Source: Escherichia coli
GTDB taxonomy: Bacteria > Pseudomonadota > Gammaproteobacteria > Enterobacterales > Enterobacteriaceae
Length of the DNA: 64,000 nucleotides
Assembly (NCBI RefSeq): GCF_017348835.2
Contig: NZ_CP071375.1
Reading direction: 5' to 3' (one strand)
Part shown: positions 1,571-64,000 of the stretch, in pieces
Position numbering within the stretch: the first letter of the stretch is position 1
Layout of the letters: the number at the start of each line of letters is the position of its first letter
The notes under the pieces: generated by a model
Databases searched by the model: none
Told to the model about the DNA's origin: nothing
The model's input: only the letters and a program-made list of their open reading frames with translations
Made by a program: the position numbers and the translations under genes

Positions 1571-4246
1571 ATGTCGTCAACCCTACGAGAAGCCAGTAAG
1601 GACACGTTGCAGGCCAAAGATAAAACTTACCACTACTACAGCCTGCCGCTTGCTGCCAAATCACTGGGCGATATCACCCGTCTACCCAAGTCACTCAAAG
1701 TTTTGCTCGAAAACCTGCTGCGCTGGCAGGATGGTAACTCGGTTACCGAAGAGGATATCCACGCGCTGGCGGGATGGCTGAAAAATGCCCATGCTGACCG
1801 TGAAATTGCCTACCGCCCGGCAAGGGTGCTGATGCAGGACTTTACCGGCGTACCTGCCGTTGTTGATCTCGCTGCAATGCGCGAAGCGGTTAAACGCCTC
1901 GGCGGCGATACTGCAAAGGTTAACCCGCTCTCACCGGTCGACCTGGTCATTGACCACTCGGTGACCGTCGATCGTTTTGGTGATGATGAGGCATTTGAAG
2001 AAAACGTACGCCTGGAAATGGAGCGCAACCACGAACGTTATGTGTTCCTGAAATGGGGAAAGCAGGCGTTCAGTCGGTTTAGCGTCGTGCCGCCAGGCAC
2101 AGGCATTTGCCATCAGGTTAACCTCGAATATCTCGGCAAAGCAGTGTGGAGCGAATTGCAGGACGGTGAATGGATTGCTTATCCGGATACACTCGTTGGT
2201 ACTGACTCGCACACCACTATGATCAACGGCCTTGGCGTGCTGGGGTGGGGCGTGGGTGGCATCGAAGCAGAAGCCGCAATGTTAGGCCAGCCGGTTTCCA
2301 TGCTTATCCCGGACGTAGTGGGCTTTAAACTTACCGGAAAATTACGTGAAGGTATTACCGCCACAGACCTGGTTCTCACTGTTACCCAAATGCTGCGCAA
2401 ACATGGCGTGGTGGGGAAATTCGTCGAATTTTATGGTGATGGTCTGGATTCACTACCGTTGGCGGATCGCGCCACCATTGCCAATATGTCGCCAGAATAT
2501 GGTGCCACCTGTGGCTTCTTCCCGATCGATGCTGTAACCCTCGATTACATGCGTTTAAGCGGGCGCAGCGAAGATCAGGTCGAGTTGGTCGAAAAATATG
2601 CCAAAGCGCAGGGCATGTGGCGTAACCCGGGCGATGAACCGATTTTTACCAGTACGTTAGAACTGGATATGAATGACGTTGAAGCGAGCCTGGCAGGGCC
2701 TAAACGCCCACAGGATCGCGTTGCACTGCCCGATGTACCAAAAGCATTTGCCGCCAGTAACGAACTGGAAGTGAATGCCACGCATAAAGATCGCCAGCCG
2801 GTCGATTATGTTATGAACGGACATCAGTATCAGTTACCTGATGGCGCTGTGGTCATTGCTGCGATAACCTCGTGCACCAACACCTCTAACCCAAGTGTGC
2901 TGATGGCCGCAGGCTTGCTGGCGAAAAAAGCCGTAACTCTTGGCCTCAAGCGGCAACCGTGGGTCAAAGCGTCGCTGGCACCGGGTTCGAAAGTCGTTTC
3001 TGATTATCTGGCAAAAGCGAAACTGACACCGTATCTCGACGAACTGGGGTTTAACCTTGTGGGATACGGTTGTACCACCTGTATTGGTAACTCTGGGCCG
3101 CTGCCCGATCCTATCGAAACGGCAATCAAAAAAGGCGATTTAACCGTCGGTGCAGTGCTGTCCGGCAACCGTAACTTTGAAGGCCGTATCCATCCGCTGG
3201 TTAAAACTAACTGGCTGGCCTCGCCGCCGCTGGTGGTTGCCTATGCGCTGGCGGGAAATATGAATATCAACCTGGCTTCTGAGCCTATTGGTCATGATCG
3301 TAAAGGCGATCCGGTTTATCTGAAAGATATCTGGCCATCGGCACAAGAAATTGCCCGTGCGGTAGAACAAGTCTCCACAGAAATGTTCCGCAAAGAGTAC
3401 GCAGAAGTTTTTGAAGGCACAGCAGAGTGGAAGGAAATTAACGTCACACGATCCGATACCTACGGCTGGCAGGAGGATTCAACCTATATTCGCTTATCGC
3501 CTTTCTTTGATGAAATGCAGGCAACACCAGCACCCGTGGAAGATATTCACGGTGCACGGATCCTCGCAATGCTGGGGGATTCAGTCACCACTGACCATAT
3601 CTCTCCGGCGGGCAGTATTAAGCCCGACAGCCCGGCAGGTCGATATCTACAAGGTCGGGGTGTTGAGCGGAAAGACTTTAACTCCTACGGTTCGCGGCGT
3701 GGTAACCATGAAGTGATGATGCGCGGCACCTTCGCCAATATTCGCATCCGTAATGAAATGGTGCCTGGCGTTGAAGGGGGGATGACGCGGCATTTACCTG
3801 ACAGCGACGTAGTCTCTATCTATGATGCCGCGATGCGCTATAAGCAGGAGCAAACGCCGCTGGCGGTGATTGCCGGGAAAGAGTATGGATCAGGCTCCAG
3901 CCGTGACTGGGCGGCAAAAGGTCCGCGTCTGCTTGGTATTCGTGTGGTGATTGCCGAATCGTTTGAACGAATTCACCGTTCGAATTTAATTGGCATGGGC
4001 ATCCTGCCGCTGGAATTTCCGCAAGGCGTAACGCGTAAAACGTTAGGGCTAACCGGGGAAGAGAAGATTGATATTGGCGATCTGCAAAACCTACAACCCG
4101 GCGCGACGGTTCCGGTGACGCTTACGCGCGCGGATGGTAGCCAGGAAGTCGTACCCTGCCGTTGTCGTATCGACACCGCGACGGAGTTGACCTACTACCA
4201 GAACGACGGCATTTTGCATTATGTCATTCGTAATATGTTGAAGTAA
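1571..4246 (+). CDS. acnA: aconitate hydratase A (891 aa)
   Basis: full-length ORF with AGGAGG RBS; aconitase family sequence recognised (e.g. [15 protein letters not shown]). Confidence 0.97.
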
Positions 4247-4252
4247 CAAGTA

Positions 4253-4287
4253 TTTGCTTGCCGGTTATTTTGCTTCCGGCAAGCAAA
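4253..4287. terminator. bidirectional stem-loop between convergent acnA and ribA (TTTGCTTGCCGG...CCGGCAAGCAAA)
   Basis: 12-bp inverted repeat with 11-nt loop between two convergent stops. Confidence 0.5.
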
Positions 4288-4309
4288 TGAATTACACAAT
4301 GCAAGAGGG

Positions 4310-4900
4310 TTATTTGTTCAGCAAATGGCCCATTTTCTCGGCTTTGGTATCGAGATAATGTTCGTTATTGGGGTTACGACCTACAATCAATGGTACGCGT
4401 TCAACAATATTAATCCCTGCTTCGGTCAGAATTTCGACTTTTTTCGGGTTATTGGTTAACAAGCGGACTTCATTGACGCCAAGGAGTTTGAACATATCAG
4501 CGCAAAGAGTGAAGTCGCGCTCATCAGCGGCGAAGCCTAACTGGTGGTTAGCCTCTACAGTATCGTAACCTTGATCCTGCAGTGCGTAAGCGCGGATTTT
4601 ATTCAGCAGACCAATGTTACGACCTTCCTGACGGTGATACAGCAAAATACCACGGCCTTCCTCGGCAATTTGCGTCAATGCCGCTTCGAGCTGGAAGCCA
4701 CAATCGCAGCGCAAGCTGAACAGGGCGTCACCGGTCAGACATTCGGAATGGACGCGCGCAAGTACCGGGGTATGCCCGGAAATATCGCCATAGACTAGCG
4801 CGACATGATCGTGTCCGGTTGCCAGTTCTTCAAATCCCACCATCAGGAAATCGCCCCATGGGGTTGGCAGTTTGGCTTCTGCCACACGTTTAAGCTGCAT
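4310..4900 (-). CDS. ribA: GTP cyclohydrolase II (196 aa from [10 protein letters not shown] start; ORF track extends to 4963)
   Basis: translation matches RibA from memory; shorter start chosen to match the canonical length. Confidence 0.93.
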
Positions 4901-28441: not shown

Positions 28442-30081
28442 GGTTTTTTCACCTCATCCTGTTTCTCGCGATACACCCCAGCAAAGGAGGCGTTACCAAA
28501 CGGGCTAAGTACCAGACCTTTGATATCGTACCGATAGGCCTGCAAACGCAATGACGACGCCAGCGGCAGAATAGGTAATTCCTGCGCCAGAATACTTTGC
28601 GCTTCGTCATAGGCTTCAATACGCGCCGCCAGCTGCTGCGAAGAGAGCGCCTTACGCAATACGCTGTCGAATTTCGGATCGCACCAGTGGGCGAGGTTGG
28701 TCTGCGAATGAATTGCCGCGCAGCTCAGTAACGGACGGAAGAAACTGTCCGGGTCGTTACTGTCCGTCGCCCAACCGGATAACGTCAGATCATGGCTCAT
28801 ATCCATCAACCGCGCCTCCTGGAAGCGACCTTCTACCGGCACAATCACCACTTTTACGCCAACCTGCGCCATATCCGCCTGAATCAGTTCGGCAGTTTTC
28901 AGTGGACTGGGGTTCCACGCCTGCGAACGTGTTGGCACCCACAGTTTCAGCGTTAAATTTTCCAGCCCCAACGACTTCAACTGTTCGCGCGATTTCGCCG
29001 GATTGTATTCAGTAATTTTAGCCTCGTTGTCATAGGCCCACGAGGCGCGCGGTAAAATAGAGGCCGCTGTTTCAGCCGTACCATAATAGATGGATTGCAT
29101 CAGGCGCTGGTTATTAATCGCCAGTGCCAGCGCATGGCGGACAGCGGGATTATTTAGCGGCGGTTTGGCGGTGTTAAATGCCAGATAGGCGACGTTCATC
29201 CCAGGACGCAGCGTTAAACGCAAGCGCGGGTCGTCACGCAAAATGGATAGCTGGCTGGCAGCAGGCCAGGCCAGAACGTCGCATTCCCCGGTCAGGAGTT
29301 TCGACAGACGTCCGGTGCCGCCGGAGCCTAAATCCACCACCACCTGCGGCATTAACGGTTTACCGCGCCAGAAGTCATCATGACGTTGTAGGCGAATAAA
29401 TTGCCCGGCGCGGTATTCCGACAACTGATATGGCCCAGTGCCGACCGGTTGACGGTCGAGTTGCTCCTGGCGATCTTCTTTCTCTAACTTCCGGGCATAT
29501 TCTGCCGACATGACCGAAGCATAATGGGTTGCGAGGTGCCACAAAAAAGAAGCATCCGGCTGAGCCAGACGGAACTCAACGGTATGATTATCCAGTTTAC
29601 GGACGCTTTTCACGTTATCGGCAAATTGCAGGCTGTCGAAGTAGGGGAAGTTGCTGCCGTTGACGTTATGCCACGGGTTGTTGCGGTCAAAAATTCGCTG
29701 GAAGGTAAACACCACATCGTCGGCATTCATTTTACGAGTGGGAGTAAACCAGTCGGTTTTTTGAAACGGAACATCGCGACGTAGGTGGAAGCGATAGGTC
29801 GCGCCGTTGTCGAGTACTTCCCAGCTTTCGGCAAGTTCTGGCATCAGGCGATAGGTATAGGGATCGACATCCAGCAGTCGATCATAAAACTGGGCGGCAA
29901 GGGTATCGACAATTAACCCACTGCTCGCTTTGGATGGGTTAAAGGTGTTGACTTGCCCGCTGACGCAATAGACAAAACCGCTGTCGCGGATATCAACATG
30001 CGGGGGGGATTCAGGCGCGGCGATTGCCTGACCACTCACAAGTCCAGCAATCACCAAAAGAGACGATAATACCTGGCGCAT
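28438..30081 (-). CDS. sapA: periplasmic peptide-binding protein SapA (547 aa)
   Basis: signal peptide; family 5 solute-binding protein; first gene of sapABCDF. Confidence 0.95.
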
Positions 30082-61121: not shown

Positions 61122-61156
61122 AATATGCCTGATGGTGCAACACCATCAGGCATATT
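61122..61156. terminator. bidirectional stem-loop between convergent tyrR and tpx (AATATGCCTGATGGTG-CAA-CACCATCAGGCATATT)
   Basis: 16-bp perfect inverted repeat with 3-nt loop. Confidence 0.6.
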
Positions 61157-62724: not shown

Positions 62725-62750
<26 letters not shown>

Positions 62751-63453
62751 GATGCCAGCGCAGCAAGTTTGCCATCGCAAAGATATATTTTTCGCTGGCT
62801 TCGTCGGAGGAGATGGGCGGAAACTCTGCGGTGATGCAATGCAAGTTGAGATCTGCACACCAACTGCCGAAAGAGCCAGGCGTTTCATAACCGACGCTGG
62901 TTACCAGAGGCAATTCAAACGCCTGGGCCAGCCATTCGCCTAATTCGCTGTGTCTGGGATCTTCAATACAAGCCAGTGGATCGTGGAATGAGACCACCCA
63001 GGCAGGTTGAATGCGGTGTATAAGCTGGCACAGCGCCTGGGTTTCAGGTTCGGAGCCAGGTTTGTCACCTGTCAGTAATACGACATCACGTTCTTCAGCG
63101 GCGCTGTTCCAGCGATAAACCGTTTCACCTTCCTTCCAGTTCGCCGCCGGAAAGTTTCTGTTTAAATCCACACCATTAGCATTGGCCCGTAACCCCAGCT
63201 GGCAGCCGTCAGGATTCACACACAGCACCACATGATGGCGGCGCAAAGAAGGTGTCAAAGTCCGCAGAGCACAGGAGAGCGTGACGACCGAAGAGTTTTC
63301 ATCACCGTGAGTGCCAGCCAGAATCAAACCACTTTCGCGACTGGCTGCAGGGGCAGGAAACCAGATTAACGGCGCGCCCAATAATGAACGTCCGTAATGT
63401 TCTGTTCCGGGCGGAAATGCGCCGCGTTCGGCGCGTGGGCGGGTTACGGTCAT
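62725..63453 (-). CDS. mpaA: murein peptide amidase A MpaA (242 aa from MTVTRPRAER start), M14-type zinc carboxypeptidase fold
   Basis: ORF track extends to 63513; 3' end overlaps ycjG 3' end by 26 bp. Confidence 0.9.
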
Positions 63454-63743
63454 GATCGTCTCTGGTTCAGGAAGTATTACAGGCAGTGTTGTGCAAATTT
63501 TGCGGATTATCAAATCCTTTTCTTCAACGCTATGTCATCGATCTTGTATCACCTTTTTGCCGGAAGTTGTTTGTATTTTCATTGATGTGCAGATATTAGA
63601 ATTGTCGTAATGTTATATACATGGCGTATTTTATTCTTATTGGTTCTACACATGTTAATCGCATCTGATTGATCAGTTCACCTTAATAAGTTTAATAAAT
63701 CGTACTGCACATAGTACAGTACGATGGTAGCTATATAATTGAT

Positions 63744-64000
63744 TTACATGAAGAATGGCTTATCGCCATCAGTCCCGGGTTGATTGATGCCTATATTCTC
63801 ACCAATGTGTTTCTCAGGTTTATCGATGATATCTGTAATTAATGCTGCGACACTCTTACGTGATACGATCGTACCTTTGAATGGTTCATTGCGTGAGGTA
63901 AGCTCATAATCAATAATATCTTCATCCGTCAGCCAGGCAGGGCGAAGAATTGTATATTCCAGTCCAGAAGCCTCAATTGCATCCGCAGCCCTGCGGAATG
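63744..64000 (-). CDS. 3' end of an unidentified minus-strand ORF running off the window (C-terminus ...GDKPFFM)
   Basis: open frame from window end to TAA (plus-strand TTA at 63744-63746); product not recognised from about 85 residues. Confidence 0.35.
   Translation of the reverse strand, partial: FRRAADAIEASGLEYTILRPAWLTDEDIIDYELTSRNEPFKGTIVSRKSVAALITDIIDKPEKHIGENIGINQPGTDGDKPFFM

Follow-up and report, generated by a model that had tools for sequence, protein, structure and literature searches.

A palindrome upstream of mpaA in Escherichia coli as a putative gene-end RNA hairpin of the neighbouring oxidoreductase transcript

Bacterial operons can carry partial terminators or attenuators between their cistrons, as exemplified by the rpsU-dnaG terminator in the rpsU-dnaG-rpoD operon and by the rplL-rpoB attenuator. 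Other intercistronic or 3'-terminal hairpins stabilise the mRNA, such as the REP hairpins between malE and malF and the hairpin of the Rhodobacter puf operon. The element described here is a palindrome located between mpaA and the gene of an SDR family oxidoreductase in a stretch of 64,000 nt of Escherichia coli DNA, hereafter the window, and it shares features with both groups. As in rpsU-dnaG and rplL-rpoB, a stem-loop appears soon after a stop codon, with a U-containing tract behind it, the flanking genes are co-transcribed, and downstream transcription is expected to be reduced rather than abolished. However, the U-tract of the palindrome hairpin is weaker than in those two systems, termination is here predicted from the sequence, and in E. 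coli the downstream cistrons have been lost, the element either ending the transcript or preceding the unrelated gene mpaA. As in malE-malF and puf, a stable hairpin past the proximal cistron could block 3' exonucleases and lead to differential expression within an operon. Unlike the malE-malF REP hairpins, it occurs in a single copy per genome and is not a REP or BIME element.

The palindrome and its surroundings

The gene order at the locus is tyrR (+), tpx (-), ycjG (+), mpaA (-), the SDR family oxidoreductase gene (-), two alpha/beta hydrolase genes (-) and pgrR (+), and positions 63400-64000 of the window are 100% identical to E. coli strain PE164. The SDR gene ends with a TAA stop codon (63746 to 63744), encodes a product of 212 aa with NmrA-like/NAD_binding_10 domains, and is the intact full-length form of the K-12 pseudogene ymjC, for which a literature search yielded presence/absence association data only (PMC9602453). 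The spacer that separates it from mpaA (63454-63743) has a G+C content of 34.5%, compared to 51.3% for the window, in agreement with its earlier description as an AT-rich region of 290 bp. The same earlier note had placed the palindrome upstream of mpaA, which is right with regard to location, but the distance to the mpaA start is ~245 nt while only 18 nt separate the palindrome from the SDR stop codon. As a name for the full 290 bp, mpaA promoter region is loose, as 63662-63743 are the remnant of an operon spacer and only 63454-63583 (~130 bp) are common to nearly all E. coli. The features of this interval are listed in Table 1.

Table 1. Features between the SDR gene and mpaA, in window coordinates and in the direction of transcription
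Feature	Position	Strand	Basis or remark
SDR family oxidoreductase gene, 3' part	63744-64000, continuing past the window end	minus	PE164 annotation, translation, Pfam domains of homologues
Stop-to-hairpin spacer, 18 nt	63726-63743	minus	first 9 nt (AUCAAUUAU) conserved across genera, next 9 nt not
Full hairpin, sense RNA AUCGUACUGUAC-UAU-GUGCAGUACGAU	63699-63725	minus	fold, register kept in other genera, covarying pairs
Hairpin, 5' arm	63725 to 63714	minus	
Hairpin, loop	63713-63711	minus	
Hairpin, 3' arm	63710 to 63699	minus	
Tail UUAUUAAACUUAUU, orphaned Shine-Dalgarno AAGGUGA (63684 to 63678) and ACUGA	63673-63698	minus	comparison with other genera
ATG near the place of the lost adh_short start codon, shifted by a 7-nt insertion	63662-63664	minus	alignment and sequence reading
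mpaA (murein tripeptide amidase)	62725-63453, ATG at 63453	minus	next gene downstream of the hairpin, same strand

In plus-strand reading, the palindrome CGTACTG-N9-CAGTACG is present at 63701-63723 exactly as had been claimed, with CGTACTG at 63701-63707, CACATAGTA at 63708-63716 and CAGTACG at 63717-63723. The inverted repeat is longer than first noted, with perfect 9-bp arms (ATCGTACTG/CAGTACGAT) that span 63699-63725, and no other inverted repeat of 7 nt or more occurs in the 290-bp spacer. Repeats of this general kind are common, since the window has 76 with arms of 7 bp and loops of 3-12 nt, and its dinucleotide shuffles give 45 +/- 9. Perfect 9-bp arms are rare in the shuffles (2.65 +/- 1.9 per 64 kb), with ~0.012 expected per 290-bp spacer. 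On the minus-strand RNA, which is the sense strand of the SDR transcript, the stem comprises 12 pairs, including one U.G, closed by a 3-nt UAU loop, with a predicted stability of -16.2 kcal/mol. The plus-strand counterpart of the U.G pair is a C.A mismatch, and the fold reaches -12.0 kcal/mol; the stem thus grows from 9 to 12 pairs on the sense-strand RNA only, by means of the G.U pair. Furthermore, a sense segment of 82 nt folds better than 200 out of 200 shuffles (z = -3.7). A plus-strand terminator was considered and rejected, as it would combine the weaker fold with AUGGUAGCUAUA in place of a U-tract. Around ten loci in the window have repeats with 9-bp arms. One of them is a long perfect inverted repeat at 61125-61150, between the convergent 3' ends of tyrR and tpx, which is presumably a bidirectional terminator.

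The earlier note had offered, as one reading, that the palindrome is the terminator hairpin of the upstream minus-strand gene. Assignment to that gene is borne out by the position, the G.U extension, the conservation of the register and the covariation, while the designation as a terminator fares less well, given a mediocre U-tract, no call in a terminator scan and an intercistronic place in the ancestral operon. A stable sense-strand stem-loop, as expected for an intrinsic terminator, starts 18 nt after the TAA. It is followed in the window by UUAUUAAACUUAUUAAGGUGA, where the U-tract (UUAUUAAAC) is interrupted and poor. Using a TransTermHP-style decay-weighted formula, the tail UUAUUAAACUUAUU scores -3.7, which places it in the top 1.8% of window 15-mers. 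A consensus terminator scan with a rule of at least 5 T in 8 did not call the site in E. coli, due to the interruption of the U-tract, or in K. aerogenes. The positions of the uridines in the tail also vary among orthologues (UUAUU, UUCUU, UUAGU), and no match was found in Rfam 15, where the best overlapping hit (E = 2) reaches 15.6 bits and the gathering score of the family is 91. In K-12, no other hairpin or terminator call is found between ycjY and mpaA, and a regulon list gives ycjY-ymjDC-mpaA as a single PgrR-regulated unit (PMC5934670). This listing, in a strain where the element is missing, is consistent with a hairpin that limits read-through, though it does not amount to proof.

The hairpin in gene clusters of other genera

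Most enterobacterial reference genomes have no close orthologue of the SDR protein. At 81-85% identity, it is found sporadically in Pseudocitrobacter, Citrobacter koseri, Klebsiella aerogenes/Salmonella, Kluyvera, Enterobacter sichuanensis and Raoultella. In all of these relatives, the SDR gene is the third gene of a cluster in which a divergent LysR regulator is followed by two alpha/beta hydrolases, the NmrA-like SDR, an adh_short SDR and an OYE flavin oxidoreductase. Those genera share the hairpin, with an unchanged register, and so do two E. coli strains that have the full cluster elsewhere in the chromosome. In full clusters, the SDR-adh_short spacer has 72 nt and reads TAA, 18 nt, CCCGUACAGC-loop-GCAGUACGGG, UUAUUAAACUUAUCAAGGUGAACUG(A)GAUG. 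The hairpin therein lies 18 nt past the SDR stop and ~14 nt ahead of the adh_short ribosome-binding site, and it is always followed by the UUAUUAAACUUAUCAAGGUGAACUG..AUG of adh_short. With regard to more remote relatives, Serratia homologues are without the element, and distant SDR homologues (up to 70% identity; Burkholderia, Stenotrophomonas, rhizobia) lie in different contexts with no equivalent hairpin.

The window aligns to the cluster spacer from the stop codon to ~63673, through hairpin, tail and Shine-Dalgarno sequence, and the homology ends there; for 63454-63661, no homology to the cluster in other genera was found within the flanks compared. This alignment demonstrates that the palindrome is a homologue of the intercistronic hairpin of the cluster. 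The resident E. coli copy (pgrR-ycjY-...-SDR, beside mpaA) is, on the same alignment, a cluster whose two distal genes were lost just past the adh_short start, with retention of the hairpin, the AU-rich tail, an orphaned Shine-Dalgarno sequence and an ATG. The sequence past the ATG at 63662-63664 is unrelated to adh_short. A conserved small ORF behind the orphaned Shine-Dalgarno sequence was also considered, and was rejected as the open frame has 22 codons in the window against 9 in the divergent Escherichia L098.

The complete six-gene cluster is found in 2 out of 5426 E. coli genomes, those of strains C8 and RMDEC465. The sites differ between the two, being beside cobT/ldtA in one case and beside paoD in the other, and a cluster found at differing chromosomal sites is thus mobile, which implies that it moved horizontally as a unit. 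In Enterobacter sp. J49 (3140-4467), a degenerate copy of the hairpin is the last part with homology to the cluster, and 330 nt further downstream lies a phage-type integrase gene.

Comparison of E. coli with the full clusters allows the constraint on the spacer to be gauged, as identity at the 4-fold degenerate sites in the SDR gene is as low as 35-39%, which amounts to saturation. The 9 nt just before the hairpin retain 1-2 identical positions and the 3-nt loop retains 0-1, while the stem core CGUA/UACG is invariant. Two basal pairs have changed jointly, from C-G and C-G to A-U and U-A. Towards the loop, the apical pair 35-41 is A-U, C-G or U-A and the pair 34-42 is C-G or U-G. Across the alignment, 84.7% of the cells are paired, compared to 19-40% when the 3' partner is slid by 1-3 columns, and the covariation score is 0.215 against 0.115 in column shuffles, none of which reach 0.215 (0/500). 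This covariation is supportive of a folded RNA, though the independent events are few, essentially one split between Escherichia and the rest plus one apical pair. The basal 6-bp stem alone is universal, as all non-Escherichia copies have an A.A mismatch at pair 8 and one lineage (L110) also has G.G at pair 7. As far as the Shine-Dalgarno sequence, the tail is identical at 22-24 of 25 positions despite the saturated 4-fold sites, which can be explained by the downstream ribosome-binding site alone. Wherever adh_short follows, the predicted stability of the hairpin ranges from -12 to -18 kcal/mol.

Distribution and maintenance within E. coli

Of 5426 complete E. coli genomes, 2939 (54%) carry the element, in a single copy and always at this locus, and in the remaining 46% the whole region is deleted. 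The exact 31-mer is found in 1972 of the carriers; another 956 differ from it by one mismatch and 2 by two, and a 10-bp internal deletion accounts for the other 9. About a third of the carriers are therefore imperfect, with one stem mismatch in 956/2939, mostly due to the B1-type allele G63719T. Where the distal genes are gone, the stability is erratic. In contrast to the -16.2 kcal/mol of the window, the B1-type allele (as in E24377A) has one broken stem pair and -10.0 kcal/mol, a divergent Escherichia lineage with an 8-nt deletion in the hairpin region has -6.3 kcal/mol, and MEC2025, where a 6-bp stem remains after the 10-bp internal deletion, has -3.9 kcal/mol; the copy of Enterobacter sp. 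J49 has -6.5 kcal/mol. The outermost stem pair is lost in KY1497, another of the variants sampled. In all sampled variants, the Escherichia stem lesions are uncompensated. Together with the frequent deletions, these uncompensated lesions show at best weak selection on the element within E. coli.

The ycjY-to-mpaA locus as a whole has decayed by several independent routes across E. coli. In K-12, B and O104:H4, a deletion from ~63580 takes the distal spacer and most of the SDR gene, which leaves the pseudogene ymjC. Strain S87 has a separate deletion with its junction at ~63727, right beside the palindrome. Of the two hydrolase genes, the second has a frameshift in PE164 and is missing altogether from K-12 and from the metagenomic contig L099. 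B1-type strains (E24377A, 2020S05-013-18-1) have an 18-bp insertion (ATGCTGACTTAGATGTAA) at ~63604 relative to the window. In the divergent Escherichia L098 (2501-3136), the SDR gene has two compensating frameshifts, with 18 aa that differ, and the tail has further deletions besides the 8-nt deletion in the hairpin region; its synonymous sites are 90% identical to those of the window strain, and the 150 bp beside mpaA are 98% identical.

Proposed role and competing readings

The palindrome probably acts as a gene-end RNA hairpin of the SDR transcript, a putative leaky terminator or 3' stabiliser for ycjY-SDR. An RNA hairpin is favoured over a protein operator based on its position past the ribosome, the sense-strand G.U extension, the covariation, no nearby promoter call and no second copy of the motif. 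In the proposed mechanism, once RNA polymerase moves out of the SDR cistron, the hairpin would fold beyond the reach of the ribosome that terminates there and, together with the UUAUU... tail, would constitute a weak and leaky intrinsic terminator. A further effect may be to stop 3'-to-5' exonucleases and thus to protect the upstream message. The ancestral operon would have relied on the hairpin to set the ratio between the expression of proximal and distal genes; termination there could only be partial, since a strong terminator would silence two genes. In the E. coli strain analysed, it would mark the 3' end of the ycjY-SDR transcript and limit read-through from the PgrR-controlled promoter into mpaA. 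"Leaky terminator or stabiliser" appears to be the furthest that the evidence reaches, and the poor maintenance of the hairpin in Escherichia, with stem mismatches, internal deletions and the loss of the region in 46% of genomes, is a point against such a role.

The same observations would be explained if the hairpin had served the intact five-gene operon alone and were functionless, not-yet-decayed DNA in the commonest E. coli allele. The weak selection within E. coli gives this neutral account substantial weight, and we regard it as a serious though minority possibility. The stability is uniformly high with adh_short downstream and erratic without the distal genes, mutations in the stem are uncompensated, internal deletions occur, the region is absent in 46% of genomes, and the neighbours are decaying too, as seen in the frameshift of hydrolase 2 in PE164, the double frameshift of SDR in L098 and the pseudogenes of K-12. 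On the other hand, the changes in the E. coli allele are not all losses, as pair 8 went from A.A to U-A and two apical pairs were added, and a stable 12-bp hairpin with a U-rich tail after a transcribed gene would affect RNA polymerase and exonucleases whether selected or not. A more ambitious and rather doubtful proposal is that the hairpin and its near-invariant AU-rich tail would together make up a cis-regulatory RNA dedicated to the mobile hydrolase-SDR-OYE cluster, for instance a factor-responsive attenuator or a 5'/3' stability switch for adh_short/OYE. If this were true, the 54%/46% presence/absence would decide the wiring of mpaA, a gene for a peptidoglycan-recycling amidase, to the PgrR-controlled ycjY promoter, and the ycjY-ymjDC-mpaA operon of K-12 would have arisen, in a strain-specific manner, as a by-product when the element was deleted. 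An operator for a dimeric protein other than LexA, which would bind CGTAC-N13-GTACG and act on an internal promoter of the distal genes, or on mpaA in E. coli, appears unlikely. The half-sites CGTA/TACG are invariant and their spacing is fixed in all orthologues, the arms form a perfect DNA palindrome in E. coli, and symmetric protein contacts could also yield symmetric changes in the flanks. However, no sigma-70-like promoter was called beside the site in E. coli or K. aerogenes, the mpaA start codon is ~245 nt away, and an asymmetric position (CAG/CAG) is found in all non-Escherichia copies. Moreover, a search for a second copy found the motif once per locus and absent from the divergent pgrR/ycjY promoter, and a single copy in the genome means that there is no regulon. 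The pair adjacent to the loop is U-A in C. koseri and C-G in K. aerogenes, two near-identical sequences, and this covariation fits a fold better than an operator.

The palindrome had been described in the earlier note as a superficial likeness of a LexA box with an off-canon CTG-N9-CAG spacing, and this holds, as the spacing is 9 bp and there is no CTG-N10-CAG register at the site. LexA motif scoring, which had been proposed as a check, was carried out with a heterology-index matrix from 26 E. coli LexA boxes, reportedly those in the lists of Lewis 1994 and Fernandez de Henestrosa 2000; the numbers are approximate. The training boxes have indices of 0.5-9.8, compared to at least 22 for every overlapping 20-mer, and when all 20-mers of the window are ranked by the approximate matrix, the best overlapping one comes only 540th. 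The outer pentamers TACTG and CAGTA of the E. coli palindrome do resemble the SOS box consensus TACTG(TA)5CAGTA (PMC6590174). A hypothetical insertion of one base into the spacer would lower the index to ~9, and a spacer one base short of a plausible LexA box explains why the site drew attention in the first place. An SOS box controlling mpaA has nevertheless next to no chance of being correct, and this reading was rejected on the grounds of the wrong spacing (N9 instead of the canonical N10), the index and the symmetry, which is confined to Escherichia, as the orthologue arms are GTACAG...CAGTAC. Furthermore, the site is missing from K-12, whose SOS regulon is the reference, and it lies off any promoter, with the mpaA ATG ~245 nt away and no promoter call nearby. 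By the same approximate matrix, the best 20-mer of the window is AACGGTATGATTATCCAGTT at 29578-29597 (index 8.5), in which CGG replaces the invariant CTG. A role at the level of DNA, as a recombinase target or as a cruciform or slippage hotspot that shapes the locus, is considered very improbable. The S87 junction is directly beside the palindrome, two independent deletions fall inside it (MEC2025, L098), the homology in Enterobacter sp. J49 breaks after the hairpin and before a phage-type integrase gene, and the cluster occupies differing chromosomal loci in different strains. However, these cases are single instances, the truncation in E. coli lies ~35 nt past the hairpin and the K-12 deletion junction (~63580) is unrelated to it. 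On reading the sequence, no attC core (RYYYAAC/GTTRRRY) or dif-like context was seen, and instability of a palindrome would count as a side effect with no function. A REP/BIME/ERIC-like repeat was also rejected, as the element occupies one place per genome in the 2939 genomes and occurs once per locus.

With the palindrome read as a gene-end hairpin, an ordinary kind of feature that belongs to the 3' end of the neighbouring gene, a false SOS-box lead is eliminated. The region upstream of mpaA in many E. coli is, in part, a fossil operon spacer that contains a hairpin, a ribosome-binding site and an ATG, and that bears witness to two redox genes lost from a cluster mobile among Enterobacteriaceae. 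Since K-12 has deleted the element, the coupling of mpaA to the PgrR-regulated ycjY promoter described for K-12 may not extend to the carriers, and may fail in the half of the strains that keep the hairpin, which would make mpaA a case of regulatory wiring that differs between strains. At its other end, mpaA (-) is convergent with ycjG (+), and the 3' ends of the two genes overlap by 26 bp (62725-62750), as they do in annotated reference strains.
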